The position numbers were made by a program, and so were the translations under genes. Shown here piece by piece: positions 1,541-29,080 of a stretch of 64,000 nucleotides of DNA. The DNA is taken from NCBI GenBank assembly GCA_047967505.1, contig CM106538.1. One strand, 5' to 3'. The notes beneath the pieces were generated by a model that was given only the letters and a program-made list of their open reading frames with translations, was not told the DNA's origin and searched no databases. This stretch comes from Dipteris shenzhenensis. Its lineage: Eukaryota. Positions within the stretch are counted from its first letter, which is position 1; each line of letters starts with the position of its first letter.

Positions 1541-3851
1541 TCAAAAACATAAATAAACTATCTCCATGCAGGACCTGTCTAAATCTCCTTCCTTACAGGA
1601 ATCATAAACAGATTGCCTTAAGGAAGCTCTGAAGAATTCATAGGGTTGATGGAAGTGTTTGTGCAAGTATGCCATATCATGTTCAGTCCAGAAGGTCCAT
1701 AGAGCCCAAAATCTAATCCAGTGAAGGAGTAGAGAATAAGGTCTCAATGGAGTAGGACATCCACCAAAAAGCCAAAAAATTTCCCAAATCTGGTATTCGG
1801 GAATCTAAGACATAAGAACCTTGAAATCTTTGTAGTCAAAAGCCTGGAGCATTGACAAAACCATAATAAGTGTGGTATTGTCTCTGCATGTGCCTGGCAT
1901 CGTAAACAGGTAGTGGTGGTAGTAGCTATCTTCCTCTTAACCAAAGTAATTCCAACTGGCAATGTTCCAGTAATGCAACGCCAAAGAAATAGTCTTTGTT
2001 TGAGAGGCAGCTTGGCCTTCCATAAAATACTCAAGTTCCTTGACCACCAAGAGAGGGGTTTTTGCATATGCCACAAATAATTTGCACGAGTGTGTATTTA
2101 CGGCATGGGCTGCAGAAGTCTGTATGTTGTCATAAAGGTGAGTTTGCTTATAGGCACAGGGTGCATATTCAGCCCTTTGTGACATAACTTCCAGTCAGCT
2201 AACTTGTTATCATGTGAGAACTGGGGAATAGGCAATAAAGGCTGCAAAAGATCTTTTATTTTCTTCCAGATAGGCCTGTGGTGCATTCCAAGATTGTATT
2301 TGGCCATGATCTGAGGAAAAGTAAGAAGTTGCCCCTGATCATCTATCACATCTGCAATGCACCTGACACCCATTTTGCTCAAATTATATGATTTGACACG
2401 CTCCTGACAAGCAAGGGGAGGATCAAAAATTGCACTCCAATATATGCTCTCACTTCTCAAAGAGTTGTTATGCGGGTTTGCAGGATCCCATTTGATATTA
2501 GATAGGACCTCTTTCCAATCATGAATGAGTGCCAAGGCAAAGGGGCAGTTTGGGATTTTTCCCATAAATTTTCCAAGTAAAAGCTCCCAAACATCCACTT
2601 CCCATTTACCATAAAAAAGTGTCTGCATAGTCTGACACATATAGGAAAGCATTCTTGTCCACAGTTGTTCTTGCTTAAAGAAGGCGAGCAGCATTGATAC
2701 CTTTCGTGAGAGTGCATGATAGTGAATATTGAGCACATTCAAAGCACCACATTTCCGAGGAGAACAGATGAGGTCCATATTCAACAAATGGAATGCCTTC
2801 TTGGAGGCCTTTTTCATCCATAGCATGTCCATGGCTTTTGCCATATAGCTGCAATTTCTTGATCTGTCCAATGTAAAGTGGCAGAAAGAATTGTATGTAT
2901 GCCATAACAATGGATTGCACAATCCTGATGCGGACATGAAGTGGCCAAATGCCAGTTTTCCAATAATTTAGCTTTGCATTTAGCTTGTCTAATATCCAAT
3001 TAAGCTATTGTTTTCTAGTGACCAACCAGCCAATAGGATATCCCAGGTGCTTGATCAGAACATGAGGATCTAAAATCTCTCCTGGCCAAAGTATGGCGTG
3101 CCAATCTCAACTCTTTAAGGGTATGGGTTTGGATTTCTCAAAATTAACATACAGTCCTGCTGCCAATCCAAACAAAGATAAAGCATCCATTAAAGTGTTC
3201 AGTTCTTGCTGTGTATTTTGAGGCATAAAAAAGGAGTCATTTGCATATGCTTGGGCCACAAGGCAACTGTAAACCTTTTAATTTCCCATGTGAGGTAAGA
3301 TGATCCATATAGATTAGTAGGGGGTGAGTGGCAATGTCATAAAGTAGCGCACTGAGAGGGCAACCTTGCCTCACTGACTTACCCAATGTCTAAGATGTAG
3401 ACAAATGATTAGCCAAAATACATTGGACTGAAGAGTCTTTATATAGCCAATAGATAACCTGCACCATTTTTGGCCCAAATCCCATCTTGTGCATTGTTTG
3501 TGTGAAATCCCACTGAACAGTGTCGAAAGCTTTATCTATGTCTACCTGTAAGATTAAAATATCTTGTTCATTGTATTTGGCATACTCAATGGCAGTCATG
3601 GCATTGGCAATGTTATCATATATTTGCCTTCTAGGCACAAATCCATATTGAAAAGGATGTAGCCCATCATGCAAAAAGGTATGCACTCTATGCACCAGCA
3701 TTTTGGTGATGAGCTTATATTGCACTGGCATGAGAGTAATGGGCTCCAGTCAAAAATATTTTCTTTGGAATAAGCTTGACCAGTCCATGTTTCCATGAAT
3801 TAGGCATACAATTGTTATTCCAGGCATCATTAATCATTTGTAGCATGACAT
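1541..3851 (-). pseudogene. LINE ORF2, 3' part: reverse transcriptase and C-terminal zinc finger (zf-RVT-like), frameshifted
   Basis: Motifs MPNSWKHGLVKLIPK, QYGFVPRRQIYDNI, QVDIDKAFDTVQWDF, IKHLGYP, LWKAKLPLKQRLFLWR and CLRCQAHAETIPHLLWFC. Confidence 0.9.
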
Positions 3852-4074
3852 CATTAGGGGAGAATTGGGGTCTCAAAAGGGCCTCATAAGGAATGTATTA
3901 ACAAATGAATTAGTCATAATGAAAGGGCCAAGGTAGGTCCCAAAAAGTCCTAACTCCCCCTCACCTAGGTGGGTTAAGCCCACAAGTGACCCCACCTCTT
4001 ACACAACTCTCTTACACAACTCTTACTCCTAGGTGGGAGCCAAAAAATTCAAAATTCAAAAATTCAAAATTTGA

Positions 4075-4700
4075 ATTCCCTCCCTCCTCTCTCCTCCCTC
4101 CCTCCCTCCCCCTCCTCCCTCCCCCTCCCTCCCTCCCCCTCCTCACTCCCTCCTCCCCCTCCCTCCCTCCCTCCTCCCCCTCCCCTCTCCTCCCCTCCCC
4201 CTCCTCACTCCCTCCTCCCCTTTCCTCCTCCTCCCCTTACCTCCCTCCCTCCTCCATGCCTGCTCCTTTTGCCCTCCCTCTCCCTCCCTCCCCCACGCCT
4301 GCTCATCCTGCCCTCCCCCTCCCTCCTTCTCCACTGCTGTTCCTCCTCCCCCCTCCCTCCTGCTCCTCCCTCCCTCCTTCCTCCTCCACACCTACTCCTC
4401 CTCCTTCTAGCTCCTCCTCCCTCCTTCCTCTCCCTCCTTCTCCGGCCACCCAGGATCCCTCTCCTCTGCTCCTCCCTCCTGTAGAATCTCTCCCCTCCTC
4501 CTCCCTCTTTTAGCATCTCTCCCCTTCTCCTCCCTTCTACAGCAGCTCCTTCCCTCCCTTCTACACCCGTCGCCCTACTCTTCTCCTCCTCTTCCTCTTG
4601 CCCTCATCTACTTCTCCTCCTCCCTCTTCCTTGCTATTCTCTCCCTCTCACTGCTCCATCTTTGCCAGCTCTCCCCTACATTTTAGCTTACATCACTGAT
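4075..4700 (+). repeat. C/T-rich low-complexity tract (possibly a decayed proline-rich N-terminus of the transposase)
   Basis: Almost pure pyrimidine sequence; gives Pro/Ser/Leu-rich translations in several frames. Confidence 0.85.
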
Positions 4701-4718: not shown

Positions 4719-6845
4719 ATGGCACCATTCGAGGACATATCCAACAAGTACCATGTGAACCTACAACTGGAGGCAGAATATGCAAGCACACATTCTTCGG
4801 GATATAGTCGAACTCCTCAAAGTGTGCTCCACAGTCTTCGATTGCAAGGGAAGAAGCATCTTGACCTTTGGGTGGATGGAAACTTGTATCCTTTAGACCC
4901 TGCCGCCCAAAAGAGTCCTCCTTTTCATACAGTGCATGATGTTGTTCGGTTTGTTGGCAAGGGACATGCTGGATTGCTCGGTTATTGCAATCGATTGAAC
5001 CATATTCAGACATTGGCTATGCAAGCAAGCGAGGTGTAGAGAGCCCAAGCAGAAGAACTTGCACATTTGGGAAATATTACTATTGTGGCAATGCATAATA
5101 GTAATCTCCAATTGCAAAACAAAGAACTCAGTGACAAAGCATATGCACTGGACTTGGAGCGACATGAATTGGAAGAATCAATCCAGAAGCTTGCTGAAAG
5201 CAAACAAGATTTGGAAAGGTCTATCTATGGCCAAGTTCAACGTGCTGTGGAGAAGGAAAAAGAGAAGTCGATAGAACGAGTACAAAAGTTGAAGGGAACA
5301 TCTTCGGGACTGAAGGAGAGGAAAAGACAATTGCAATCTATGGATGCATTGTCAACCAATAGTGGTGCCCAAAAGAGGAGAATATGGGCTGCAAGGTTAG
5401 TTCCCCAAATTTTCAATGAAATTTCTTACCCCAAAATATCTGTGGTGTTGCATTCTTTCCATAAGACTCATTTGTACTGTACTTTAGGAATTTCATGGAG
5501 GATGTGATGGGAACCCCTAGACAAAAAGGGCTATGCAAACAAGTTGCTAGAGAGGTAATGAAGGATTTCAAGGGCCTCGTCCAAGCAAAGGAGGTGCTTG
5601 GAGCTTGTGATGCTGCTGGTGTAAGTCGTGAAGCTTACAACTCTGTTTTAAAAATTTTCAAGTCTGCTATGGAGGAAAAGTATAAGATATCTACAATGCC
5701 ATTGCCAACACCGTGGTCTGTAAGGCTTGCACATCAAGAAACAAACCAATGTGCTAGAGAAAACCTTCGAGGATACCATTGTGTAAGTGGTACAATGACT
5801 TGGAAGAGTAAAAAGAAATCTGGCATCCAAATGTTTGAGATGAATGCTTTCAATAATGTTTACGTGGATGTAGAGAATTTGCAGAGAGCCATGGTCAAAT
5901 TCTATGGGATGAGACAAGAAGGTAAGAGAAATTCCCTCCACATTCAACTTTATTTCTTCTGATTTCTATATCCTTACTGAATTTCTCTTTCATTGTACAG
6001 ATGGCAAGCTAGTATTTGTTATAAAAATGGATGAAGCTCAGTTGGTAAAAGAGCACAAGCTAGAGAGGGTGAGCATTTGTATTATGAACGATGCCTTGCA
6101 TTTTGCTCAAGGGGATGAGGAAGTTGAGCAAGGTTTCTCAGTCCAATCTGAGAAGGACATATGGTGGCTTGTAGCCTTTGAGACCCCAAAGGAGTGCCAC
6201 GAGACATTGAAGTGGGTTTTGGAGAGAACCGGCATCCCGTTGATTATTCGAAGACAAGAGGCAGGGCAAACATTAATTGTGGATGGGCATGGAACGTTTC
6301 AAGTTGAATGGCATCTAGATCATGATTTAAAGACCCTCAAGTGCTTGTATGGTTGTGATACAGGTGCAGATGCAAAATGGACATGCTTGTGTTGCGCCCA
6401 CTCTCAGAAGATGCAAAAGGGAAGCCTACAGTGGGAAAATGGCATCCTTTCTTGCAACCAAAGTGCAGCCCTTGATCGTCACAAAAAGGATCCTAAGTGG
6501 GACACCATTCTACCAATTCCATCCATTTGGAATACTCAAGGAATGGAGAAATTACACTATAGAGCAAAGGCAACATACTTCAAGAATACAAGGCATGGGG
6601 GTGGTATCACGTGAAGCAATGCACTACATGAAATGTTCGATTGGTTTTATAAATGTCTAGAGGCCAAGACTCTCAAGCGCGATAAGGTAGAGGTCTCAAG
6701 TCTCGCAAAAGCGGTTCAACATGTCAAGAAGACAAGGAGATGTGCTGCTTGGAAGTCCTCAATAGGGAGCCAAGGGGTTGTGCTTTGGTTGTAACGTAGA
6801 GTCAGACGGGGGAGGCGTTGGGTCCTAAGAGAGCCCGAAATGTAA
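4719..6845 (+). pseudogene. Spliced RAG1/Transib-like DDE transposase, pseudogenised
   Basis: GT-AG introns 5396-5487 and 5922-6000 join the ORFs in frame. Motifs: LVFVIKMDE (D1); WHLDHDLKTLKCLYG..KWTCLCC (D2 + CxxC, cf. RAG1 GYDEKLVREVEG..YICTLC); WNTQGMEKLH (E, cf. RAG1 WASEGNESGNK). In-frame stops at 5037, 6612 and 6792, and an apparent internal deletion near 6520. Confidence 0.72.
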
Positions 6846-8516: not shown

Positions 8517-9943
8517 TCAGAAAATGCTCGTCCCTGCTCTAAACCTAGTCGATAGAGAGTCATTGCTATTGTCGTTGCTAGCTAGGGACATGGCTGTTGC
8601 CATCAATGCCATACCTTGAAAATTGGTTCCAAAGGCATTTAGGGCAGCCATGCGGTTCACCAAAATGACCTTGTCAGCATTGCGATTGATGTCAGCATGA
8701 CCAATCACTCTTGACAAGGCCTTGCACTTCAAGAGGTCATTAGTGCCATGTGGAGAAAACTTTTTATGGATAACCACAAAGCGCCCTTTTGCTTGGCCAA
8801 GGTAATGTGCCAGTGAGTGAAGCGACTGCAAACAAGGCATTGTCGAGATGAGAATAGGTCGACCTCAAATGCCTCCTGCAATAGTCTAACATTACATTAG
8901 AATTTCATTAAAGCAAAAGTATACCAAGAGAGAAGAAATTCAAAGCTCATAGTTTCTTACCACTATGGAGTCATCATGCTCAATCGCTTCCTCTTTGTCA
9001 ATGAGGATGGATCCAAAGGCCTCCTGCTGTCTGGAGTGAGATGTGGAGGCTTTTTCTGGAACATCAGGTAGGTCGGAGTAGATTGATGTCTCTGCATCTT
9101 TGATTTGGGCCAATGTTAAAGCAAGAACCTCTTCTATTGAATCATCTACTCCCAAAAACCCAGGTTCTTGCATAGTCGTCTCCACCTCATATCCACATAG
9201 GATACCAAGAGCTTCATCCTCCTAGAGACCAAACATAACCTCTATGTCATGGAGAAAGAGGTATTGTTCTCCATCCACAAGAAAGGGAGCAAGAAACCAT
9301 ATCATTATTGTGGGGTCAACAGAGGTGGTGCCCAAGGTGGATGGAATTTGAGAAGTAGAATGGGGTTCAGGAGGTTGCTGGAGCACTTCCAGGGCCAATG
9401 CAGCTTCCCGCTCCTCAGCTTCTTCATCTATGGGCTCTTCATTGTAGATGTTGGGCTCATCTACGGAAATAAGAGGATCGAAAAGGGTAGGGGCAGGGTC
9501 AAGGCTTGAGGTCGAGGCCTCCTCTTCCATTTGTCCCTCATAGAGAAGGAAAATAAAGGTCATTTCCCAGGATAGGAACCTATTTCCTGTGTTTCCGATG
9601 ACTCCACATGCTAGGAGGTCATCATGTCCACCTCCCTAAACCCTAGGGGTGTGAGTTGGGCTCGAAAGCGATCTAAACGCTTCACGAACCTGGGTTCTTC
9701 ATTGAACAAGTACTTCAAATAATCAATTGGGACCCATCTTTTTGTAGACTCATCAAGTTGATATGCAAAACTCGCGATGTAGTCTTGCATGTACTTGATG
9801 AGGTCTTCAAAATCATCTCGGGCTCCCAAGCAGGTGCCTAGGACATCTATGCTCTTATCAAAGACTTGAAATAACTCCTACTCTCTATCAATTAATGGAG
9901 TATGGGAGATGAAATCATGGAAGGCAGACCTAGCAGAATCCAT
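8517..9943 (-). pseudogene. Decayed accessory gene of unknown function (helical N-terminus, acidic middle)
   Basis: Chain of minus-strand ORFs (9611-9829, 9222-9563, 8940-9185, 8517-8840) with protein-like composition. ATG at 9943 (MDSARSAFHDF). Confidence 0.5.
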
Positions 9944-10176
9944 GGTAGTTTGGTAGCTAGGAGAACTATGGCTATGATAGTGAAACTTTGAAACTAAAGT
10001 AACTTTATAACCTATGTATACCCAAATGTTCTATATATAAAAAATAAAAAGAATTATAAAATTTTGGGGAAAAACTTGACATTGACATGAAACAAAACCA
10101 TTCAAAACATCAAAATTAATTGCACCACTATTAATTGGAAAATGTCAAAATCCACAATTGTTCCACCCCACATTTT

Positions 10177-12212
10177 CTAGACAATCTTCAATATTGTAGG
10201 AGGGATAAAAGTGGCACTATGCACGAGCTTCTCTACACGCTTTCCTACCTTTTCACCATTTAAGGTAAAGTGAAAGGACTCAGACATGCCATCCTCCATG
10301 ACCAATAGGTGTTCCCGCATGTCCCTAAGAGTCCATTGTGATGTGACAATCACATTCTTAACATCTCCTAAATGAGAACCAATACATAAACTTACCCCTG
10401 TATTATCATCATCATTAGAGTCAAGGGGGAGCCAATCAAGTCACTTATTTTCTTCTAGTGTCTATATTGGAAAGCAAAATATATCATTTGGTAGGAGATG
10501 TGGTACTTGACAACCACATTGTCCTTACATATATGGCATTGAAACAGATCACCCTTTTGTTCACCTGACCTGCTTCCCCAATTCACCCCAAGCAATTCCT
10601 CAAGGGCATTCTCATGTAGGCACTTGCATGACCACATGGTCTTTATTCTGTGCATCTGGATATTATGAAAACAAGAAGCAAAAATATGCAGAGGCATAAA
10701 CCAAGACAACCTTACCCATTTAGAGCCAAATTTTTTGTTCTGTGCATCTGGATATTATGAAAACAAGAAGCAAAAATGTGCAGAGGCATAAACCAAGACA
10801 ACCTTACCCATTTAGAGCCAAATGTAAACTTCATGGCCATGCCCACATCCTTTGCAATCTTTTCCTTGTATGATTGCATTGTTCTTGTGTCCACCATGCT
10901 GCAATCCATGTCTTCAAGTTGTGGTGTTACAATGCATTGAAGATGGCCATAGCCTGATGCTGTCCTTGGAGTAATGTACTTGGCATTATACCAATAGATA
11001 TTTCTCCGTTTCAAAGCAGAGGGCTTCTCTCCAGCATGCATTTGCCTTCCTAAATCCTCATGAATGGTAGTAAACTTACCTAAGAAGCACTCGACTGGTT
11101 CCCACTCCTCAAAGTTTGAAGGAAATAGATCTGTTATGCACAAGTGCTATTTCAAAATACAATTTCAAACAGCCTCATTACACTGGTTTTATTTCAAAAT
11201 ACAATTTCAAGCTGACTCATTACACTTCAAAATCTTACACAAAATGTAGACTTACAATGTGATGGTATTGTCGATTGAGTGCTTAACAGAAGAAGGCGCA
11301 TGTCCTTCCCCATGTAGATGTGTTGTACCTTTGCAAGCAATCCTTTCTTCCCACGCTTGAACTTCATGATGCGGCACTTTCATTCATGCAAAAGATCACC
11401 TCTTTTGCTCTTGGGAAGCTTATGTGGACCCTTGGTAGATCCTCTCATGACTATCCAATCATTCAAGTTGTAGGTGCAAGGCACCCATTCACCCAGTGCA
11501 TTTATGCTTCTATGGGACATAGAGTACATGTATGGTCTCCTCACCATGCTTGTACAAAGGTCACAATAGCAATAGTGGACTAGAAAGTGCAGCTTGGAGG
11601 GAGCGAGTAGCTCTGATAGAGGAAGAGAGAGAGACAAGGTATAGAGGGTGCAACTGAAGCTTGAGAGAAGCTCCAAGAGGTGCTGTAGCTAGGAATGGAG
11701 GGAGAAAGAGTAGAGGGGGATGAACAGCTGCTCCAGGAGGTGTTGTAGCTAGGAATGGAGGGAGAAAGTGTAGAGGGGGATGAGCAACCACTATAGGAGG
11801 TACTATAGCTAGGAATGGAGGAAGAAAGAGCAGAGGGGGATGAGCAGCTACTGCTGTAGGAGGTGCTATAGCTAGGAGTGGAGAGAGAATGAGCAGATGC
11901 TACAAGAGGTGCTAGAGAGGGAGAAACACAATGGACCAGAGTAGGAGGGGGCAGAGAAGATGCCAAATGCGTTCCCACATTTGAAAAATGGAGGGAGAAT
12001 GGAGCTGGACCAGAGAAGAGGAGGGGGTAGGCCTGTAACAAGCTGAGAGGGGGAAAAATTTCACCCAGAAGGGCCCACCGACTCTTGAATGACTTGTAGG
12101 TTTGTTTGGGGAAGGTGCATATGGGAGAAGGGTCAAGCATGGGTTGAGAGGGGGGGGGATGGTTTGAGTGGTCCCTGGTGTAAGAGGAGTAGCCAATAGG
12201 GGCTCTTTGCAA
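10177..12212 (-). pseudogene. Convergent accessory gene: Pro/Ser-rich repeats, putative BAH-like domain, C-terminal ubiquitin-like domain
   Basis: Intron 11131-11255 joins YNLNDWIVMR...E*KCRIMKF...AKVQHIY to YLFPSNFEEWEPVECFLGKFTTIH...IYWYNAKY (BAH-like pattern). The C-terminal VSLCIG..KNVIVTSQWTLRDMREHL..FHFTLNGEKV..ILKIV* resembles a beta-grasp fold. Disrupted by stops and a 92-bp duplication. Confidence 0.55.
11680..11880. repeat. ~60-bp coding minisatellite, ~3.3 copies
   Basis: TAGCTAGGAATGGAGG..GAAAG..AGAGGGGGATGA recurs with a 60-bp period. Confidence 0.85.
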
Positions 12213-12354
12213 GTCTTCCCACCCTCCACCTCAACATGGCATTGCCCCACAGAAGGGAGCACTCCCATTGGTACACCTCAAATACCTCACTAATCCCTTG
12301 AAAGTAGGAAACACTAATTGGGGGTCCTTTGGAGACCCCAATTCTCCCCTAATG

Positions 12355-13274
12355 CTTTAAGGTCATCCCACAATGCCAAATAGAATTCCACTGTTAGACC
12401 ATCCCATCCTGGAGATTTCCCTTTGCTAAGATGGAGCAAGGCATTATGTAATTCTTCTGCTGCGAGTGACTGATCCATGGATAAGGCATCCTACTAAAGC
12501 ATGATTGGTTGCACATGTCTCAAAAGAGCTTGTTGTGCATCTATCATTGGCTGAGTGGGAGCTGAGGGGGCTATAAATAGCTTGTGAAATTGATCATAGC
12601 ATTCATGATCAAGATCAGAGAGAGAATGAGTCCAGGTGCCTCAATCTTCCATACTCTTAGACAGGAGCTCTTCCTTCTCGATGAGAATGTAACCCCTGGC
12701 AAAAGATTTGGAAGAGCATCCTTTATCCATGAATGGTGTCATCCGTGCACAAACTTGCCACTTGTTGAGTTTCCTTTGATTGTTTTCTTATAACAATGAT
12801 CGATAATGCAATACACTTTGTTGTTGGACTGGAGATAAATTATGAACCTGTGATAACTCAGTGAGGGACTGCACTTGATATTTGGCATCTATTATTTTTT
12901 TCCTCCAATCAGCCATATATGATCTGCCATATAGCGTAATAACATGCTGAATATAGTGCACAAAGGAATCCCATGCATAATTTAAGTCATAATGGGCATG
13001 TGCCTTTAATGGGGCAATGGCATCTTGTATCATGTTTCTGAAAGAGGCATGCTGAAAATATGCTACATTTACATGTTTAAGCCAAATAGTATGAGTAGGC
13101 AAATCATGAGTAGGCATACCGAAATCCAGTGTCAACCAAACAGGAGCATGATCTGATAGAGATAGAGAATGATCCACCGTGATTTGAATGGTGAAATCAG
13201 TAAATTGCTACATGTGTAGCAAGTACCATCTATCTAGCCTTGCCCAGTAATTGTGGATAGGATTATGATGATAT
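12355..13274 (-). pseudogene. LINE ORF2 middle fragment (end of APE endonuclease, linker, start of RT)
   Basis: NYWARLDRWY, SLSDHAPVWLTL and KGKSPGWDGLTVEFYLALWDDLK. Confidence 0.9.
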
Positions 13275-13372
13275 GGGAGGTAGCAAGCTAAGGGTGTCCA
13301 CTTCCGGACCACTTTCGGGTGAGTGTGACACCCGCTCGAGTGAAAATACAAAGGTTTTGCTTCGGTCTCCAA

Positions 13373-14010
13373 TACCTCGATCGAGGTATAAGCTCCAATG
13401 AAAATCACACACGAGCACAACCGAGCCAAGCCAATACCTCGATCGAGGTACTGCGCTTTTTCACCGGACCGAGCCTCTACCTCGATCGAGGCTTGCTGGC
13501 AAGCCAGCTATACATGCCACATCTACCTCGTTCGAGGTATCGTGGCAATCCAGCTCAACCTCGATCGAGGTCAGGTGGCATGTCCAGCATACCTCGATCG
13601 AGGTATGTGCCATCCGACAGGGCAGCCAACAGGGCGGATGACATACCTCGATCGAGGTATGCTGGACATATGACTGGGCATCCCGCTTCTGCCAACATAC
13701 CACGATCGAGGTATCGTGGCATGTCAAAACCTCCATCGACGTGGATGTACCGAGATGTATGGGCATGCCACAATACCTCGATCGAGGTATTGTGGCATGG
13801 CAATACCTCGATCGAGGTAGATGTACCGAGATGTATGGGCATGTCAAGAATACCTCGATCGAGGTATCGTGGCATGCCAATACCTCGATCGAGGTAGATG
13901 TGCCGAGATGTATGGGCATGTCAAGAATACCTCGATCGAGGTAGCTAAACCCTAATTTTTCTTATAAAAGGAGAGCGACCCCCCTCATTCCGCATACCTC
14001 GATCGAGCTC
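13373..14010. repeat. Subterminal array of the 16-bp palindrome TACCTCGATCGAGGTA (~15 copies, some degenerate)
   Basis: Seen directly. Spacers are variable, and there is a 77-bp higher-order duplication at ~13770-13943. Confidence 0.95.
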
Positions 14011-14122
14011 TGCCTCATCCATCGATTTCGGATTTGCCGGACTTCGACGGAATTGCGCGAGCGAAGGAGAGCCACGAACGGACATTGACGGAGATGGACG
14101 GAGCCGGAGCGGGAGAGTCCAG
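13946..14122 (+). promoter_or_regulatory. Putative promoter and first exon of the cargo gene
   Basis: TAAACCCTAA at ~13946, TATAAAA at ~13963, GC-rich leader, ATG at 14094 (MDGAGAGES) ending at AG|GTAGGG (14123). Confidence 0.5.
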
Positions 14123-15160: not shown

Positions 15161-17526
15161 GGTTTTTAAAAATCATCTTTAGGAATGGCCACTAGTTGAG
15201 GTGGATTGCCCAACCAAAATAGGAAATGAAGATACAAGACATTTTGTATAAGACTCACTCGACTTATCAAATTAATACACAAACATAAACCTACTAGTCA
15301 ACTATTGGAGTTGGACATTAAAGATTGACTAGTGACATGGTTGGTGACCAAAGCTTGAAGTTGACTAGACACTTTGGGACAAGCAAGTTCTTTAGAAGGA
15401 AACTAGGTTTAAGCTTGGGTAATCATCCCTAATATATTGGGAAATTACTAATGATAAATCATCCTTTAACTATTTGGCAATTAGTAAGGATCGATTCTAC
15501 TAGGAAATATGTTGAAGGCATATGTCCCCTATTAGTCAATAGATTGATTAGACTAAGCATGCATGATAAGGCTATAGCTTGGAAATGCCTAGATAGTGGC
15601 TTAGTCCAAATCTTCAATATCCCTTAAGAAGACATGAGATAGTGGCTTAGACCTTAAGAAGACATGGAATAGTTTGCAAATGTCTAATTCTTCTAAGTTA
15701 TGCATAGACTCTAGCATAACTGAAAAAAGAATATTACAAGATTGAGAATATTTGGGTGGGTCTTCAAGAACTCGAATATTACGGTCTGTGCCTATAAACT
15801 GTTTGAGATTCTTATGCTATCACTATGGCATGCTTTAGATCTAGCACTTTGATCATGTTTGTTGTCTAGTTCCATAATTCATCTACTTCTCTTATATGTA
15901 TAAGAAGAAAGAAATACGCCATAGAGAAACTGAAAGTTTAACTAGAATACCTAACATTCATCGCACATGGGACTCTAGTGGATCTATATTCATTCCACAT
16001 TCATGCTAATATATGCAAGTGTTTTGATCAACTATAGACCTAAGTTCAAATAGAGCCTGTTAATGACTGAATCTCTCCTAATCATCCCTTAATGATTATA
16101 GATAATAGTATGGGCCACTATAAGGATTGGTTAGGAGCTATTTTTGAAATGCCAAACTTTGAAATGAAGTCAATATTCATTGTGTTGAGGAATATTTGTC
16201 GGGTGGATCTAGTTGAAGAGAGAAATCCATGTTGCATAAGATTTGTCTGAGTTGAGCAGCCTCAAATTGACTTAAGAGAGAGAGAACTCCATAACCTTCA
16301 AGAGTCGACATTTGAAGCATCCCATTCCATGTTGTTTGCTACATGGCAGCTCGCCATGTGGCACACATACATCCCTTTTTGCACTGTAGGGAAACCTATG
16401 ACTAATGTTAACAACATTTATCTTGTCTTTTACAAATGACTAAGATGTTTTCCCAAAAAGACTTTGTAATAATAATCACGTGAACCACCTCATAACCAAA
16501 ATAATATGGATGCTACATATCTCCTTTCCCTCGTTGAAACTATGTCACACATGGAATGTCAACCACATGCTCAAGGAATTATATGCTAGTTTCATTGTAA
16601 GCAAGGGTGGTCTCTTTCTTGCTAGTCCAACCATAGGCAACGGTGACGCTTATTACTTGAGCTCAACCAAAATTAACATTAGTTATCGTATGCAACCCTT
16701 CCCATTGCATAGGGACATCCAAGGATTTAATTTTCAAAGTTTTTGAATCCTCTTCTAGGGATCTTGTGCCCTTTGTTGTTGCTACGTATGTGGATGATCT
16801 CATTCCAAAACTATTTTTACAACTAGAAGTCGAGTGAGTCTTATACAAAATGTCTTGAACCAAGTGATGATCTATAGGAATGGCCACTAGTTGAGGTGGA
16901 TTGCCCAACCAAAATAGATAATATTGAAAAGGCTTATTATTTTCTCAAAGTTCTCGCTTTAAAAGGTCTGTAGTGTGAACCCGCTCTCTTTTTTAATGTG
17001 TAGTCCGAGAAATACTAGATGCGCCTTGCTTGTGTATCATTCAAAGTAATGTATTAGGTATCCTTCTATCTCCTCCATATCTATTGCAAACCCAAGGCAG
17101 TAAAGCATTCAAAGAAGGTCTTATTAACCAAACCTCTCCACTATCTGTCCTTAGTATAGGGGCCATTAGTGGACAATGTGGTCCTTACACCACATGTGGA
17201 AAAGTTTCATATTGGATAAAAAGTGAAAAAAGGGAAACATATAAGGAAAAAATATTTGAGACATCTAAATTTAAAAATGCAACAACTAGAGTGAAAAAAT
17301 TCTAATCAAAATTAAGAATTATTAATAATATTGATTAATATTGAGCCACACATTTGGCCCATCTACCGGTAGGTGCATAGGATCTACCTCATCAAGGAGT
17401 ACGTACAAATAGTTTTCATTACGTAAATAGATTATAAGTCATATTGAATAGAATATTATTTTCATTACCCAAATAGAATATTAATTTCCATGTGTTTTTT
17501 TTGTGCATGCGCCAACCAGCGCACAG

Positions 17527-19468
17527 GTTCTAGCACCACTATTCGTATGCAGATAGAGATGCTGAGAGCTGAGATGAGGGCACTGCAGGATGCTAGGGCA
17601 CCCCCTCACTTGGTTGCGAGCCTGGATTCAGTTATTGAGGCTCTGAGTCGATTGGACACAGTTGAGGACGTTGTGGATAGCTTTCAGGCACAGGCTGAGG
17701 CAGAGATCACTGGTGGTGGCTTGGATTGGAGAGCCATTCAACAGTTGTTTGAGCGGGAGTCACATCACAGGGAGGCCTTGGAGGATATGTTTTGGGATGG
17801 TCACACCGAGGCGATGCGACCACGATCAGGGCTCCCCTTGCATATTTTACGGTGTAGGCATCCCATCATAGCAGCACACATTTATCCTAGATATCTCGCT
17901 ACGAATGGTGGTCGATTGCCTCACAACCGCCAGATAGCCAGGTCGTTTGCCATGCAGCTTTACGCTGAGTTTGTCCTTGGTCATCGGGTGGACTACCTCA
18001 GTACCCGTCCAGGATCAGGAGCGGGACGTGGTAGGATGGGGCGTCAGGAGTGTCAGATTGTAGGTGTTTGGCGTCGACGTGAGGGACTAGAGTTGCACAC
18101 CATCCCTGCACCGGCATTGCGAGCGGTGGGAGGACAGATTAGGGGGGATGTTCATTCAGTGGCATCATCCTTGCAGCACATGGTCTCTGCCCTATCGAGA
18201 TCTATTGCGATTCCACCTCCCCCACCTCGATCATCGATGGAGCATCCCACATCTACACCACCTCCCACATCTACGGTGCCTCAGCACGAGTTGGAGGCTC
18301 GAGACACACGGATTGCAGAGTTGGAGGCATTATTGGCCGAGTCTAGGGACGAGGTTAGTTATTTTGATTATGTTAGTTTATTTTTTTGTAGCGTGTTTTG
18401 AACTGAAGTTTTTTGGTTAATTCTCACCATGTACGCGACATGTTTGCATTGCAGGCACATCTATTGCGTCAAGAGATGGAGTCTCGCGTACGACTGTTGC
18501 AGACAGATTTGGAGGAGTAGAGGATTCGGACACGCATAGCATACCATCGCGCAGAGCACTATATTTTGCAGTTGAGGCATATTAGTCGTGATCCGCCGTC
18601 GTGCCATAGGATCGACCCCAGCGTGGCCCTATACCCTGGTCCTCCTGTAGATGTGCCGACTAGGACACCCATAGACGCAGCAGTCGTAGCGAGGCTTCCT
18701 ACTGCCACTTGTGTCCTCTGCCACGAGGACTTTGACACCGTAGGGTGGTTTGGACTAGGGTGCGGCCACATCGCACATCTCCATTGCATGACCCGCCACA
18801 TGGTGGCACGTTCAGTGTGCCCTGTATGCTTTGCTGACATTGATGTGGCGACATACACAGGACTGGGCATGGATGATCTATATCCTGGTCATCGTCAGGC
18901 TATTGATCCATTCGCCCGTGTAGTCTTGATAGAGCACTATAGGGAGGAGGCACAGAGAGCGTTGCTGATGCAGGAGGGTGCGGATACATCGGTGGTTGCA
19001 TCATGCGTTCCACGACGCTTTTCGTACGGTGATTTCATGCCAGGTGACGAGGCACGAGCGGAGGAGGCACGCCGGATTGAGCGAGAGGCAGAGCTGCAGA
19101 CATCATTGCAGCAGTGGGTGGAGCAGCAGCTAGGGCGGGGCCGAGACCAGCGTCTTTCACATGTAGAGACGATTACTCGCGCTGGATTTGAGGCACGAGT
19201 ATTCGCAGATGCACGGCTATGGGAGCTGAGACGCGCGTACATAGAGGAGGCGAGGGAGGCAGAGATGGCAGCAGTGACGCGTGCAGCATGCCCTCCTCTT
19301 CATCAGGATGAGGCTGGCCCATCTCATGCAGGTGATGAGGCTGGCCCATCTGAGCCGGCTTTGCCTGAGGGCACACAGCGGACGGTTGGGCAGCGGGTCA
19401 TACAGGAGCCACGTCAGCGTTCCACTAGAGGATCATATGTAGAGTTATCAGATTCGGATTCAGATTGA
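17527..19468 (+). pseudogene. Cargo gene encoding a coiled-coil and RING-H2 (C3H2C3) protein; one premature stop
   Basis: Exon to 18353, intron 18354-18454, and a final exon in frame with ORF 18566-19468 apart from TAG at 18518. RING: CVLCHEDFDTVGWFGLGCGHIAHLHCMTRHMVARSVCPVC. 5' exon structure unresolved. Confidence 0.75.
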
Positions 19469-21235
19469 TTGTTTAGGCTTCACACGTTTCTTGTATAGGG
19501 ATGCACTTTTGTAGCATGATGATGATGATGTACAGATTCATTTTGGTACTTTCATGATATTGTTCCCACTTTTATGATGTATGAGCATTTTCGTACTTTC
19601 ATGATGTTCTTCACACTTTGTTTATCTCAGTTTATCTCAGTCTATAGTTTGTTTAATACATAAGGTATTTAAAAAAGAATGCCATGTGAAGTAATTGTAA
19701 ACATTAAACATTAATTGTAAACATTAAACATTAAACATATCAAAATTCATCTTTTTTTGTATGAAAATTTTATTTTGCTGATAAAAGTTTTTCATTTTTT
19801 AAACAAAAATTTTATTCTATTCATGTTTGTCAATAAAGTGTGTTTCAAAATCCAAATTTTCATCAATTTTTCAAAAAGACAACTATTGTCATATTCATGC
19901 TTCCAAATCTAGCCTTCCGATCTTAATATCAAAATATGTTGAAATTCAACCATTTGATAAACTAATTTGTATAAAAAGAAAATTACTTTTTTTAGACAAT
20001 GCCATAGCCCAATGTAAAATTGTTTCATCAAATGAAATTAGATATTAAAGTAACATCAATTTTACCAACTTTCAATTTATGCTATTTACAAAAAGTATTC
20101 TAGAAATGTATATTGGTACAAAACTTATCCATGACTCCGAGGGCAATGTTGTTACCTATGTGTAAATCAATTGATAAAAAATTCTTTCAACACCAATGAA
20201 CTTGAGGGAATGTGTGATCTAGAGATACTTAAACAACATGACAAAAGGAAAAAATTCGAGAAATCACCAATGTGTGGACATGCTTAGTTTGTAGGGTGTA
20301 GAAATTCTTGTATATGGATTTGATATGGGCACTTGCATAGAAAACAATTGGTATTTCAAAGAAAAAGCTCTAGCAACTCTCTTAGTTGAATGAAGCAGTT
20401 TCTTCTCCTTTGCAATTTGTCATGTTTTTTAAATTAAAGGAGAGAATACTTTTTGCAAATGATAATACTAGACATTTTTAGGTTCTGCAATAAAATATAA
20501 GTAATATTTTATGCATTCTTTTTTCACAATTCTAGTTTTTTAATAATATTGACATGAAGCGTATATTTTGTCCCTACAATTTTTAAAAAATATAAATTTT
20601 TTGGGGATTTTTTTCAAAAATGGAGTTAGACTTGTCCTTTGCATGATTTTGCTGTTATTTATTATGACTCAGTGTTTAATTTGTCTCTTATTGTTAACAA
20701 TACTTGTGCTAATTGGTGATCAAAGAAAACAAGACCTAATTATTTGTCATATTCGAACCACAATCACATGTGCCTTCCAAATCACAATCGCATATGCCTT
20801 CCAAGTTTCTAAGGACTATTTCAATTTCCTTAATAACATTTGCCAATGCACCAATCTAATTATTATGCATGTATAAAAGATAATGAACATAAAGAAGAGA
20901 AATCAACACAATTGGCAATTAATGCATGTATATGGGAATACAAGGAAGGTGTGGCATGCTAGCCCACCATTTTATTTCACTATTTTCTTTTGCATTTAGT
21001 GGTTTATGTACAAGAGAAAGGATTGGCGGTTGGTATAAGGAAAAGTGTTGGTATTTGGTTTATGTAAAAAGAAAGGGTTGTTGTGGCTATGCACCAAAAA
21101 AATATACACATATTAACAATCCCACTTCTCCCTCTTAAACTCTACTCATGTATGGGAGTACAAGGAAGGTGTGACATGTTAGGCCACAATTTAATTTTAC
21201 TATTTTCTTTTGACTTTGGTGGTACGCTAACGTGT

Positions 21236-22218
21236 AGTCGTGCTAGTAGGGATTGCTTCTACGTGGCGCAAACCAAATCAGTTGGAGACCAAATCTTGTG
21301 TGGATGTACGTCTAGGGTAGCCTAAGAGGCGTGTGAAGTTTCGTCCCCAACAGGGTTTAGGATTTAGGGTCCAGGGTTTAGGGTTTAGGGTTTAGGGTTT
21401 AGTCGTGCTAGTAGGGATTGCTTCTACGTGGCGCAAACCAAATCAGTTGGAGACCAAATCTTGCGTGGATGTACATCTAGGGTAGCCTAAGAGGCGTGTG
21501 AAGTTTCATCCCCAACAGGGTTTAGGATTTAGGGTCCAGGGTTTAGGGTTTAGGGTTTAGGGTTTAGTCGTGCTAGAAGGGATTGCTTCTACGTGGCGCA
21601 AACCAAATCAGTTGGAGACCAGATCTTGTGTGGATGTACATCTAGGGTAGCCTAAGAGGCGTGTGAAGTTTCGTCCCCAACAGGGTTTAGCATTTAGGGT
21701 CCAGGGTTTAGGGTTTAGGATTTAGGGTTTAGTCATGCTAGTAGGGATTGCTTTTACATGGCACAAACCAAATCAGTTGGAGACCAAATCTTGCGTGGAT
21801 GTACAGCTAGGGTAGCCTAAGAGGCGTGTGAAGTTTCGTCCCCAACAGGGTTTAGGATTTAGGGTCCAGGGTTTAGGGTTTAGGGTTTAGGATTTAGTCG
21901 TGCTAGTAGGGATTGCTTCTACGTGGCGCAAACCAAATCAGTTGGAGACCAAATCTTGCATGGATGTATGTCTAGGGTAGCCTAAGAGGCGTGTGAAGTT
22001 TCGTCCCCAACAGGGTTTAGCATTTAGGGTCCAGGGTTTAGGGTTTAGGGTTTAGGGTTTAGTCGTGCTAGTAGGGATTGCTTCTACGTGGCGCAAACAA
22101 AATCAGTTGGAGACCAAATCTTGCGTGGATGTACGTCTAGGGTAGCCTAAGAGGCGTGTGAAGTTTCGTGCCCAACAGGGTTTAGGATTTAGGGTCCAGG
22201 GTTTAGGGTTTAGGGTTT
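21236..22218 (+). repeat. Tandem satellite type A: 6 x 165 bp, each ending in ~6-7 TTTAGGG-type telomeric repeats
   Basis: Unit starts at 21236, 21401, 21566, 21731, 21896 and 22061. The last unit is 158 bp, one heptamer shorter. Confidence 0.97.
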
Positions 22219-23515
22219 AGTCGTGCTAGTAGGGATTGTAAAAATGTATGCATTTGTCCTTCCACGTGGCGCATACCAAATCAGTTGGAGACCAAATCTT
22301 GCGTGGATGTATGTCTAGGGTAGCCTAAGAGGCGTGTGAAGTTTCGTCCCCAACAGATAAGTCCACGTGCGTATTTCATTAGTACGTGCGCCATTTTTCA
22401 TACGTAGTCGTGCTAGTAGGGATTGTAAAAATGTACGCAACTGTCCTTCCATGTGGCGCATACCAAATCAGTTGGGCACCAAATCTTGTGTGGATGTACG
22501 TCTACGGTAGCCTAAGAGTCGTGCGAAGTTTCATTCCCAACAGATAAGTCCACACATGTATTTCGTTAGTACATGCGCCATAGCTCATACGTAGTCGTGC
22601 TAGTAGGGATTGTAAAAATGTACGCATTGTACCTTCCACGTGGCGCATACCAAATCAATTCAGACCAAATCTTGCGTGGATGTACGTCTACGGTAGCCTT
22701 AGAGCCGTGCAAAGTTTAATCTCCAACAGATAAGTCCACATGCATATTTGGTTAGTACGTGCGCCATTTCTCACATGTAGTTGTGCTAGTAGGGATTGTA
22801 AAAATGTACGCATTATACCTTCCACGTGGCGCATACCAAATAAGTTGGAGACCAAATCTTGCGTGGATGTATGTCTAGGGTGGCCTAAGAGTCGTGCGAA
22901 GTTTCATTCCCAACAGATAAATCCACATGTGTATTTCGTTAGTACATGCGCCATAGCTCATACGTAGTCGTGCTAGTAGGGATTGTAAAAATGTACACAG
23001 CTGTCCTTCCATGTGGCGCATACCAAATCAGTTGGGCACCAAATCTTGCGTGGATGTACGTCTACGGTAGCCTAAGAGCCGTGCAAAGTTTAATCTCCAA
23101 CAAATAAGTCCACATGCATATTTGGTTAGTACGTGCGCCATTTCTCACACGTAGTCGTGCTAGTAGGGATTGTAAAAATGTACGCATTATTCCTTCCACG
23201 TGGCGCATACCAAATAAGTTGGAGACCAAATCTTGCGTGGATGTATGTCTAGGGTGGCCTAAGAGTCGTGCGAAGTTTCATTCCCAATAGATAAGTCCAC
23301 ACGCGCATTTCGTTAGTACATGCGCCATAGCTCATACGTAGTCACGAGTGCTAGTAGGGATTGTAAAAATGTACGCATTGTACCTTCCACGTGGCGCATA
23401 CCAAATCAATTCAGACCAAATCTCGCGTGGATGTATGTCTAGGGTGGCCTAAGAGTCGTGCGAAGTTTCATTCCCAACAAGCAAGTCCACACGCGTATTT
23501 CGTTAGTACGTGCGT
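22219..23515 (+). repeat. Tandem satellite type B: 7 x ~187 bp, homologous to type A but without telomeric repeats
   Basis: Unit starts at 22219, 22406, 22593, 22779, 22966, 23153 and 23340. Confidence 0.97.
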
Positions 23516-23849
23516 GAATTTTCTTAGTCACATTTTTAAAATGTCCTAAAGCACAAAACAAATTACAACATTACTACTAATAAACAATTTTTTGTATTAC
23601 AAACACAACAAATCCCATTGAGAAGACATCGGACATCATGTTAAAAATAGAATCTAATACAATGATGTGTATGAACGTGTATACAGCCATCATAGTGAAA
23701 TACAAAATATGAGTCCATGAAAATTACAATGGTACGGTCACACAGTGAGCCTATACATATCGAATACAAAAAAGTGTAATCAACTAGTGATACCCAATAA
23801 AAATCAATCTGATCAACTGATGATCCCAAAAAATATGATATGTAATGTG

Positions 23850-26774: not shown

Positions 26775-27023
26775 TCTCAATGAAAGTCGGATGGAAGGTG
26801 TGACAAAGTGATGAGGAGGCAAGAATGGCTAAGAATGGGTGAAATGAACCAAAACGTGGTGTCTTATAGAGAGCCTCAACTCATCCACTAGATTGCTCTT
26901 AGATTGCTCTTCATTATTATTAGTGGAGAGGTGCTAAGATTGATACTAATTGGCTTAGTTTTGGTGGAGAGGTCTGCTATGCCCAGAGCCCCGATCATAT
27001 ACCTTGATCCTTGATCAGACCTT

Positions 27024-27220
27024 ATACCTCGATCGAGGTATTCAGTGCATTGCGCATGTATGTATGAACCTCGATCGAGGTATCTCTAGGTGTCGAGGTA
27101 TTCAGTGCATTGCGCATGTATGTATGAACCTCGATCGAGGTATCTCTAGGTGTCCTCGGTCACATACCTCGAACGAGGTATTGTATGCCTCACCCAGGTT
27201 ATATACCTCGATCGAGGTAT
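27024..27220. repeat. Right-hand cluster of TACCTCGATCGAGGTA palindromes (~5), including a 60-bp tandem duplication
   Basis: Same motif as 13373-14010; lies just upstream of the transposase start. Confidence 0.92.
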
Positions 27221-28521
27221 TGTATGCCTCGCACATCGTCATGTATATACATCTGGCTGATGTGGCACCATGCATGGTCATGATGTGGTAATATAGTCTC
27301 TTCCTGCATGGTCATGATGTGGTATTGGGCCTCTTCGATGACATTGAAAGGTGATGTGGCATGATGAGTTGGCATTCATGAGGTGGTAGATTGACATGGC
27401 AAATTGAGGTGGAGGGATTGGTGACGTGGCAAGGTTGAGGAGGTATGCCAAGGTGGCATTGTGTGATCACATGGCTGATGATGTGGAATGATGAGGTGGC
27501 ACATGTGGCAGCACGTGTGGCAATGTAAGGTGACATGGCAAGGAGTGATGTCACATCTGCTTGATGAGATGGCACCACGTGGTCTAACAACGTGGCATGG
27601 TTTTGATGACTCAGCCTTCCACATGGGCAGCATGCAGACTCCAAAGGCTTGCCACTAGGATCGGTGATGCTCCTAGCCTACCTCACCAAGCCTAATACCA
27701 AGCCTACCTTGTCTTGGTATTAGGCTTGGGTGGCCCTTTTTCCCCCACAAAAGGGAGATTTAATTGTTGGAGGCCATTTCGTACGTTTCCCTTACTCAAA
27801 TTTAACCAAAATTTTTTCCTCTTATTCATCATGCAGAGGACTAAAAATATTGACATTTTTGAAATGTTTGGTTATGTTTGAGAATTACTAGATTTATTTT
27901 TAATATTCTTTGTTGATCCTCTAAGGAGTAAAAGTAAAAATTAAACTTCAATCTTCCTAAATCTAACCGTTGGATTTGGGATTTGATGATTCAACCACAC
28001 ACCCTTATGTGCCTACTAACCTTCCACCGAATTGGATTTGCTTAATTATTCAAAATACTAAAAAAAAGTGGTGTGCTACTAAAATGCATGTATTTTATGA
28101 CTTTATTTATTATAAATAATTATTTATAATTAGATAAATCATTCAAAAAATTACCAATAAATCAAGTTAAGCTCTACATAATGCAAAGAGACCACTTACA
28201 AAGTTTCAATAACATTTAATCTAAAATGAGTGAGAAATTTAGAATTTAATATGACACTCTTTGTTCGTGACAAACGTGTGACCACCCTGGAACCATGCCG
28301 TGTGACACAAAGAAATTTTCTGTGTGTGCATCGAATTTTCGATCAGACTATACGATTGTGTGCACAATAGCAAGTGTGATGTTGTGTCAGAAGACTTCAA
28401 AGACTAGATCCATAGGGAAGTAGGTGAGATTTGCATTTTTATGTGCTAAAAAGCTTGTTTTTCCACCTCCTTAGGATTGGGGAGTGAACAAAAAGTGGAC
28501 ACCCTTAGCTTGCTACCACCC

Positions 28522-29080
28522 ATATGTATATCCAGGCAAATCATGCTGCAAAGAAAGCCAAATGTCTCCTGCTTGTGTATGTGCCATAAGATGATTCCAT
28601 TTTCTTTGCTCAAGCTAAAGCATGTGTGAGTTTCCTGTAGTGTTATCTCTAGGCCTAGGAGAGTTGTTGAAGTCCCCTCCAAGGAAGGCAACTGATCTCC
28701 AGGGATATGCAGCAATAGACGCCCACATGTCAGCCCTGTGGGTAGATACCTGAGAGGCATAAACAGCAGCAATCTCATAAATGTCACCAAGGATACATAT
28801 TTGCATAACCATCCATCTCCCTAGGGAATCATTGTAAGCAACCTGGGGCTGTAAATCATGTTTGACTAGCATAGCAAGGCCTGAATAGTCAGTCACCTGA
28901 ATAAAAGATATCGTATCCTCTAAAGTAACTAACATCTCCAGCCATAGCATGTTGATTATGCTCTTGCAGACATATCACATCAGGCTGGTACCTCATAACA
29001 TAACTCCAAAATAGCCTCCATTTGTTTCTATTACAGAGGCCCTGTATGTTATAGGTAATACACTTGTTTGTAGTGATCAT
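28522..29080 (-). pseudogene. LINE ORF2 5' part: APE-type endonuclease
   Basis: CITYNIQGL, PDVICLQEH, SGLAMLV, AAVYAS and AFLGGDFN. Confidence 0.92.

Follow-up and report, generated by a model that had tools for sequence, protein, structure and literature searches.

Does the gene that faces a decayed RAG1/Transib-like transposase gene in the genome of Dipteris shenzhenensis encode a chromatin-reader domain, and could its product stand to this transposase as RAG2 stands to RAG1? The question is raised by a stretch of 64,000 nucleotides (nt) of contig CM106538.1 (GenBank assembly GCA_047967505.1), called the window throughout, in which an 8.5-kb element holds both genes between 32-nt inverted repeats. 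The two genes are convergent, with the transposase gene on the plus strand (4743-6761) and its neighbour, here named the partner gene, on the minus strand (11547-10177). An initial annotation, made from the letters alone, had proposed a BAH domain in the partner gene. Structure models support this domain at the level of the protein family, and we think it fairly probable that the BAH-fold gene is the second of two convergent genes of a repeat-bounded transposon of the RAG1/Transib family, for whose product we infer a RAG2-like role on chromatin.

The BAH fold of the partner family

Translation of the minus strand from 11547 to 10940, interrupted by an intron (11131-11255), yields all the peptides that had been quoted for the domain, and in the same order. 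Exon 1 includes WVPCTYNLNDWIVMR, LLHE(TGA)KCRIMKF and AKVQHIYMGKD, and the exon 2 peptides past the intron are YLFPSNFEEWEPVECFLGKFTTIH and, later, IYWYNAKY. The limits first proposed for the domain, 10960-11600, had to be corrected to the ATG at 11547 and to about 10940 on the minus strand.

These peptides belong to a conserved, unnamed protein family with a BAH domain, a middle domain and a ubiquitin-like (UBL) domain. In a search of 1.84 billion proteins, exon 2 alone found 98 representatives at E<=1e-3, 30 of them at E<=1e-10, the best with an E-value of 6.7e-31 and 43% identity. Therefore the peptide is more than a chance resemblance. Many of the matches are fragments, while the full-length members comprise 373-419 amino acids and begin with M..RRP like the open reading frame (ORF) of the window. 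One member, P0043 of the moss Ceratodon purpureus, is annotated as a 'hypothetical protein'; the others are unnamed and come from Logan, ENA and JGI assemblies. Searches by tblastn with the relatives P0012 and P0003 span the window from 11487 to 10189. No Pfam family was found for the partner proteins, the window pieces P0001 and P0002 being without a match at E<=1.

The AlphaFold2 model of the relative P0040, built on an alignment of 51 sequences, reached a predicted local distance difference test (pLDDT) score of 88.6 and a predicted template modelling (TM) score of 0.80. Foldseek found 65 matches of this model in the PDB at E<=1e-3, with a best E-value of 3.3e-5 and a target TM-score of up to 0.62. 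Among the matches listed all are BAH chains, namely those of TNRC18, BAHCC1, EBS, Orc1, Sir3, DNMT1, AIPP3, SHL, ASH1L, ORC1b, DIM2 and ZMET2. With VIA-align, residues 7-189 of the model gave a Z-score of 13.7 both for SHL (5znr_B, root mean square deviation (rmsd) 3.0, 126 residues aligned) and for ORC1b (5hh7_A, rmsd 2.8, 130 aligned), followed by EBS with 13.3 and BAHCC1 with 12.7. Independently of Foldseek, BAH chains took ranks 1-12 in a scan of 48,161 representative chains, again with a Z-score of up to 13.7.

The comparison of sequence profiles points to the same fold. A family profile of 17 sequences was run against all PDB sequences and returned three weak matches. The best two are BAH chains (BAHCC1, 6vil, E 0.23; polybromo-1, E 0.66), unlike the third. 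In the alignment with BAHCC1 the family motifs VqHvY, ypS..eW.pvesilG and fFYdhkY stand opposite VKWFY, YQS......VQTISHKC and YYLAGTY, and this reproduces exactly the motif mapping of the initial annotation. That proposal had been staked on a BAH-fold match in profile or structure comparison, and fold matches were found. The protein that was folded is P0040, and the link from the window peptide to this fold is transitive, through the family, and not by a model of its own. On these models the N-terminal domain of the family, residues 7-189 of P0040, is supported as a BAH fold, which names a fold for a family so far called 'hypothetical protein'.

The remainder of P0040 consists of two further parts. 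Its C-terminal residues 334-418 match UBX, UBL and SUMO chains in the Foldseek-independent scan with Z-scores of 9-10.6, the best being the UBX domain of PUX5 (Z 10.6, rmsd 2.1, 77 aligned). For the middle domain of 144 residues (190-333) no match was listed in the searches with the whole model, no separate search being made, and the ESM Atlas gave no usable match for residues 190-335.

The decayed gene, its element and the transposase

The partner ORF starts on the minus strand at ATG 11547 with M-V-R-R-P. Exon 1 then runs WVPCTYNLNDWIVMRGSTKGPHKLPKSKRGDLLHE-TGA-KCRIMKFKRGKKGLLAKVQHIYMGKD, followed by STIPSH, up to 11256, and ends in phase 1, so that T+AT across the junction form the Tyr of YLFPSNFEEWEPVECFLGKFTTIHEDLGRQMHAGEKPSALKRRNIYWYNAKY. 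On this strand the intron 11131-11255, as had been predicted, starts with GTAAGT and ends with CAG, and the proteins of the relatives align without interruption over the exon 1/exon 2 junction. We compared the contigs of four public runs over 10150-11650; the run names are coded and the kinds of run guessed. One contig of 845 nt (run X3, record 16) joins 11127 to 11256 via three other letters and is therefore without exactly this intron. The shares of the runs are small (0.05-0.19) and no RNA run is listed, so the intron-less X3 contig could be RNA or DNA. Taken together, the splice sites, the phase-1 junction, the alignment of the relatives and this contig show the intron to be real. The relative P0012 reads into it, as into a retained intron. 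Within the intron lies a 42-bp tandem duplication (11139-11222, repeat D19), one unit of which is missing from a contig of run X1, which skips 11169-11212.

Several lesions separate the window copy from its relatives. Opposite the in-frame TGA at 11380-11382, P0012 has the Trp of its 'HHWRGRI' (BLASTP, 43% identity over 81 residues, E 1e-18), and all three covering runs (X1, X2 and X3) have C instead of T at 11380, giving TGG on the coding strand. The stop codon already noticed in the initial annotation is thus a TGG-to-TGA change at a conserved Trp. A second nonsense codon, TAG at 10455-10457, replaces another Trp; here contigs of X2 and X3 have C at 10456, which again restores TGG. These two contigs also do without the 2 bp that were inserted near 10437 and shift the frame in the window, and the X3 contig is without one unit of a 92-bp tandem duplication (units 10642-10731 and 10734-10823, repeat D17). 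Because the related contigs read TGG at both stops and have neither the 92-bp duplicate nor the 2-bp insertion, the partner gene in the window is a pseudogene whose counterpart elsewhere is intact. Exon 2 was once continuous down to the stop codon at 10177-10179. Once the intron, the second 92-bp unit and the 2 bp are subtracted, the stretch 11547-10177 amounts to 1152 nt or 384 codons, which fits the length of the BAH-UBL protein family. As a splice donor, GTAAGG at about 10808 was rejected because it falls within the 92-bp duplication.

Two metagenome contigs (L001 and L002) carry near-identical copies of the partner family in which the BAH part is split over two frames at the same place. 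The split may reflect either a frameshift common to both copies or an intron at another place than that of the window.

Downstream of the partner gene, the relatives P0064 and P0098 have, after their BAH part, a different C-terminus which resembles window 9314-9057. Judged from sequence, this stretch may be an alternative exon or set of exons, or else a third ORF or gene. Two further minus-strand ORFs within the element downstream of the partner gene (9611-9877 and 9222-9635) have no Pfam match, and nothing usable came from Pfam for any of the six ORFs of the element searched in addition to the partner exons. The coordinates of the features are collected in Table 1.

Table 1. Position and basis of the features of the element and of the interrupted reading frame on both sides of it.
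Feature	Position	Strand	Basis and remarks
Exon 1 of the partner gene	11256..11547	-	conserved start M-x-RRP and first half of the BAH fold; in-frame TGA 11380-11382
Phase-1 intron	11131..11255	-	GTAAGT...CAG, 42-bp tandem repeat inside; intron-less contig; relatives align across
Start of exon 2, second half of the BAH fold	10940..11130	-	YLFPSNFEEWEPVECFLGKFTTIH ... IYWYNAKY; fold by the P0040 model
Middle domain	10435..10939	-	overlapping tblastn segments; 92-bp duplication, TAG 10455-10457, 2-bp insertion near 10437
Ubiquitin-like (beta-grasp) domain	10189..10434	-	tblastn of P0003 residues 210-288; match of the P0040 model
Stretch downstream of the partner gene	9057..9314	-	tblastn of P0098 residues 235-311 (E 5.9e-4) and P0064 residues 242-273 (E 0.003)
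RAG1/Transib-like transposase gene, decayed	4743..6761	+	tblastn of P0104, P0105, P0109, P0156 and P0158
Left terminal inverted repeat	3852..3883	+	CATTAGGGGAGAATTGGGGTCTC; pair I15, 32 nt, 94% complementary
Right terminal inverted repeat	12323..12354	-	pair I15
Reverse-transcriptase ORF of a long interspersed nuclear element (LINE), downstream part (flank)	3390..3851	-	Pfam RVT_1, E 1.6e-13; VMLQMINDAW...LIPKK abuts the left repeat
LINE ORF, upstream part (flank)	12355..12490	-	SPGWDGLTVEFYLALWDDLK abuts the right repeat

The 8.5-kb unit is one insertion which splits a LINE reverse-transcriptase ORF, because this ORF is broken exactly at both inverted repeats. Across the insertion its two halves close up to one frame, and no letters are duplicated; a second copy of this LINE, which would represent the empty site, was not found in the window. 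The 23-nt core of the inverted repeats occurs in exactly two copies in the window and in none of 100 shuffles. Immediately within both ends of the element lie repetitive tracts with Pro/Ser-rich pseudo-ORFs. On the right these are four 60-bp tandem units (11663-11900, repeats D13/D14), and on the left a C/T-rich, (CCCTCC)n-like tract of low complexity (3923-4600, repeat D3). Such subterminal repeats may be binding sites of the transposase or simple sequence.

The transposase gene is likewise damaged. Its ORF at 5913-6614 shows 47% identity to the relative P0104 (E 9.1e-47), and the transposase relatives have 565-900 amino acids. About 195 codons, corresponding to residues 576-770 of P0104, are missing through an internal deletion at 6521/6522, so that the core of the transposase is deleted in the window copy. 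The whole copy is a dead, non-autonomous relic, and as a matter of genome annotation nothing about the locus is unusual, since it holds a defunct transposon inserted in a LINE.

Relatives of this transposase numbered 48 in a profile search, and two of them are 'hypothetical proteins' of the fern Adiantum nelumboides. Sequence searches did not connect these proteins with RAG1. Pfam gave only sub-threshold coiled-coil families and no match to the RAG1 model for four relatives, phmmer of the window ORF against PDB sequences gave only chance matches, and the family profile against PDB sequences gave coiled-coil noise with RAG1 not among the matches. In the ESM Atlas, P0104 scored 0.96 with a nematode DUF1280/PHD cluster and 0.85-0.88 with RAG1 clusters, which served only as a lead and was tested by fold comparison.

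The AlphaFold2 model of P0104 (42 sequences) has a mean pLDDT of 71.4. Within about 356-750 most residues score 85-98, except for lower values around 510-550, and the last 150 residues of the protein are modelled poorly. Foldseek found 36 matches at E<=1e-3, and all those listed are chains of RAG1 or of amphioxus BbRAGL (best 1.7e-8). HzTransib followed at 1.1e-3 to 3.1e-3, while the next unrelated chain had an E-value of 0.15. With VIA-align the model (219-759) superposed on RAG1 460-945 (6xnx_C) with a Z-score of 12.8, an rmsd of 5.2 and 399 aligned residues. The Z-scores for BbRAGL and HzTransib were 11.3 and 10.8 (350 aligned for the latter), and the next fold, the P element transposase, reached 6.0. 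By this model the transposase relatives share the catalytic-core fold of RAG1 and Transib. PIF/Harbinger (TTA/TAA target), CACTA and Tc1-like elements (TA target) had been candidates and were dropped once the fold proved to be RAG1-like.

Ten transposase sequences all have D404, D501 and C524, and nearly all have C521. In P0104, 19 residues separate D501 from a downstream CxxC, and 18 residues separate HxxxxH from a downstream E, whose region is of low confidence in the model. On our reading this spacing may be like that of D600/D708/E962 and C727/C730/H937/H942 of RAG1. The part with HxxxxH is lost from the window copy.

The window has the look of plant nuclear DNA, with about 40% G+C, introns of the GT..AG type and nested repeats. 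Dense arrays of the palindromic motif ATACCTCGATCGAGGTAT, in tandem units of 54-77 bp, lie at 13360-14011 and 27012-27235, about 13 kb apart (D8-D12, D15), and are probably the ends of another repeat element. A 33-nt inverted repeat with 97% complementarity (13271-13303 and 28493-28525, 15.2 kb apart, I13) could bound another large element beside the one studied here. Two adjoining satellite-like arrays, one with a period of 165 bp in 6 copies and the other with a period of 187 bp in 6-7 copies, have a core of 114 nt in common and occupy 21232-23526 (D1, D2, D4). At 18521-19468 on the plus strand an ORF of 315 amino acids matches zf-RING_2 weakly (E 5.1e-6, 27.1 bits against a cut-off of 27.3), and the neighbouring ORF of 317 amino acids at 17448-18401 has no Pfam match.

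A proposed RAG2-like role and its alternatives

Since the neighbour is a RAG1/Transib-type transposase by its fold, the analogy with RAG2 is apt for the partner, and a RAG2-like role in tethering to chromatin is plausible by this analogy. In intact elements the BAH domain would dock the partner on nucleosomes or on a histone tail, and the middle or the ubiquitin-like domain would contact the transposase. Cutting and insertion might then be steered to, or licensed by, the state of the chromatin. The partner would be an accessory subunit, analogous but not homologous to RAG2 and its PHD finger. A complex prediction for the P0104 core with P0040, which are not a cognate pair, scored 0.00 and counts neither way.

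Several observations speak against this reading, the last of them in the binding pocket itself. The weakest link is that the transposase and partner genes were seen together at this locus only. A second paired locus was not found in a metagenome scan, which returned three loci of 1.2-2.6 kb, nor in two scans of viral contigs. The search with the Pfam BAH model (PF01426), which had been suggested as a check, stayed below the cut-off on the window pieces and on all nine relatives. Only P0043 gave a sub-threshold match of 15.5 bits against a cut-off of 30.8 (E 0.017), with residues 27-131 on profile positions 2-90 of 121. P0040, on which the fold was recognized, is only 21-27% identical to the window pieces (alignment A1), and the partner gene of the window is, as described above, a pseudogene. 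Both ends of the element read CATTAGGGGAG, thus CATTAGG and not the CAC heptamer of a recombination signal sequence, and no direct repeat of 5 bp, nor of 2-4 bp, flanks 3852/12354 at any symmetric offset; these observations on termini and target site come from one old copy and carry little weight for the whole family.

In the pocket, the position of the back Trp of the methyl-lysine cage (column H99) is occupied by His in ten of 13 sequences, with one Tyr, one Phe and one Asn. The His that follows the cage Tyr in the WFYH of BAHCC1, which we take to be the His reading H3P30, is not kept in the family either. Two residues on from H99, at F101, the same 13 sequences have Tyr (11) or Phe (2). The column of W65 in 'HWKGRI' holds Trp in 10 of 12 sequences and Tyr in the other two; it probably corresponds to the first cage Tyr, as we conclude from the usual 'pYvArI' strand, and its equivalent in the window copy is the TGA codon. 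For comparison, the cage of H3K27me3-reading BAH domains is described, in a 2026 review (PMC13068663), as a back Trp flanked by two Tyr, with His and Asp reading H3P30. In the excerpt of PMC8096256, either W667G or Y669A in BAHD1 abolishes binding of H3K27me3.

Of the aromatic cage which the initial annotation had suggested looking for, the aromatic positions seem to be conserved, but the canonical back Trp is in most sequences replaced by His. Judged from the alignment, the family seems to retain a pocket, but a non-canonical one with aromatic, His and aromatic instead of Tyr, Trp and Tyr. Because of this the ligand is probably recognized in another manner than by EBS, SHL or BAHCC1; candidates are a lower state of methylation, a tail without modification or the surface of the nucleosome. 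In any case the analysis documents a BAH variant with His at the position of the cage Trp.

The first alternative, which we regard as rather unlikely but worth keeping in mind, is that the partner is an anti-silencing or silencing-mimic factor, an option already named in the initial annotation. It would have no part in the chemistry of transposition but would shield the element from the heterochromatin of the host, for example by occupying marks that are used by BAH readers or methyltransferases of the host. The nearest folds do include BAH domains related to silencing in plants, those of SHL, EBS, AIPP3, ASI1, ZMET2 and MET1, and anti-silencing genes occur in some DNA transposons of plants, VANC of the VANDAL elements being an example. 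However, the cage differs from that of H3K27me3 and H3K9me readers, which makes simple competition for a mark not obvious. The convergent layout of the two genes also parallels that of RAG1L and RAG2L, in which the partner belongs to the enzyme as a subunit.

Instead of reading histones, the BAH domain could also act as an adaptor between proteins and hold a peptide, from either the transposase or a factor of the host, in the manner of Orc1-Sir1 or ASI1-SUVH6. The loss of the canonical cage Trp would suit such a function, and the matches include 1zbx and 1zhi (Orc1-Sir1) as well as 7xpk (ASI1 BAH with a SUVH6 peptide) with Z-scores of 10.9-11.1. However, Z-scores do not separate the BAH subtypes, the rows lying within about 2-3 units of each other, and the three aromatic or His positions of the cage are still conserved, which suggests that a pocket was kept. 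We judge an adaptor function to be improbable.

That the partner is a mere passenger, a captured host gene or fragment without a role for the element, or that it came to lie beside the transposase by nested insertion, would agree with a window full of nested repeats and with the adjacency of the two genes at a single locus. We nevertheless consider it very unlikely. A single pair of inverted repeats encloses both genes, and no further repeat boundary was found between them. The partner family has many copies, with clusters of 17 and 29 near-identical members, some of them on 16-19 contigs. Its many divergent and often fragmentary representatives look like a transposon family and not like a single-copy host gene, and P0064 and P0098 even share the stretch downstream of the gene. 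Finally, that there is no BAH domain and the order of motifs is a chance resemblance in decayed transposon sequence is hardly conceivable and, by the models, already refuted at the family level. The window pieces have no Pfam match, and phmmer of P0001 and P0043 against PDB sequences found only unrelated chance matches, but a Z-score of 13.7 was obtained by two routes, only BAH chains are among the Foldseek matches listed, and the profile alignment reproduces the motif order.

Relation to known systems

In comparison with the BAH readers SHL, EBS, AIPP3, ORC1b, BAHCC1, TNRC18 and ORC1, the partner has the same distorted beta-barrel (Z 11.6-13.7) and the same order of motifs. It differs from them in staying below the Pfam cut-off, in the His at the place of the cage Trp and in being encoded by a transposon. 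Unlike these readers it has no adjoining PHD finger, bromodomain or methyltransferase domain.

With Transib the element has the RAG1/Transib core fold in common, the Z-score to HzTransib being 10.8. However, canonical Transibs encode the transposase alone, whereas the element of the window has a partner gene, CATTAGG ends and no detectable target duplication. Typical Transibs have ends like the CAC heptamer and target duplications of 5 bp, as given in the consulted part of PMC4411706. Transib-like proteins are already known from plants, 39 of them being reported in the available section of Tao et al. 2022 (PMC9435367). What appears to be new is a RAG1/Transib-family transposon with a second gene of the chromatin-reader type, and in the searchable literature we found nothing that joins Transib and a BAH domain, nor a BAH partner of a transposase.

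Going one step further, ferns and mosses may harbour a 'plant ProtoRAG analogue', a RAG1-family transposon with an obligatory BAH-UBL second subunit unrelated to RAG2. We offer this as a possibility about which we remain somewhat doubtful. If it were true, RAG1-type transposases would have recruited a chromatin-reading partner at least twice independently, and licensing by chromatin would be a general requirement of this enzyme family and not a refinement of vertebrates. Among the unsettled points about the origin of V(D)J recombination are how the dependence of RAG1 on RAG2 arose and what role RAG2 had in the ancestral transposon. An unrelated partner with a chromatin-reader fold in plants would be an independent natural experiment on this dependence. 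The present locus hints that RAG1-related enzymes teamed up with chromatin readers more than once.

RAG2 itself consists of a Kelch propeller and a PHD finger. The partner of the window has no homology to it and comprises a BAH, a middle and a ubiquitin-like domain, as known from the model of a relative. No propeller or PHD chain is among the matches listed for the P0040 model, and the middle domain with its 144 residues is, by our estimate, presumably too short for a six-bladed propeller. What the partner shares with RAG2 and RAG2-like proteins is a domain of the chromatin-reader class and its place as the second gene of a RAG1-family element, convergent with the transposase gene and between inverted repeats, just as the RAG1L and RAG2L genes of ProtoRAG are convergent according to the section of PMC9435367 available.

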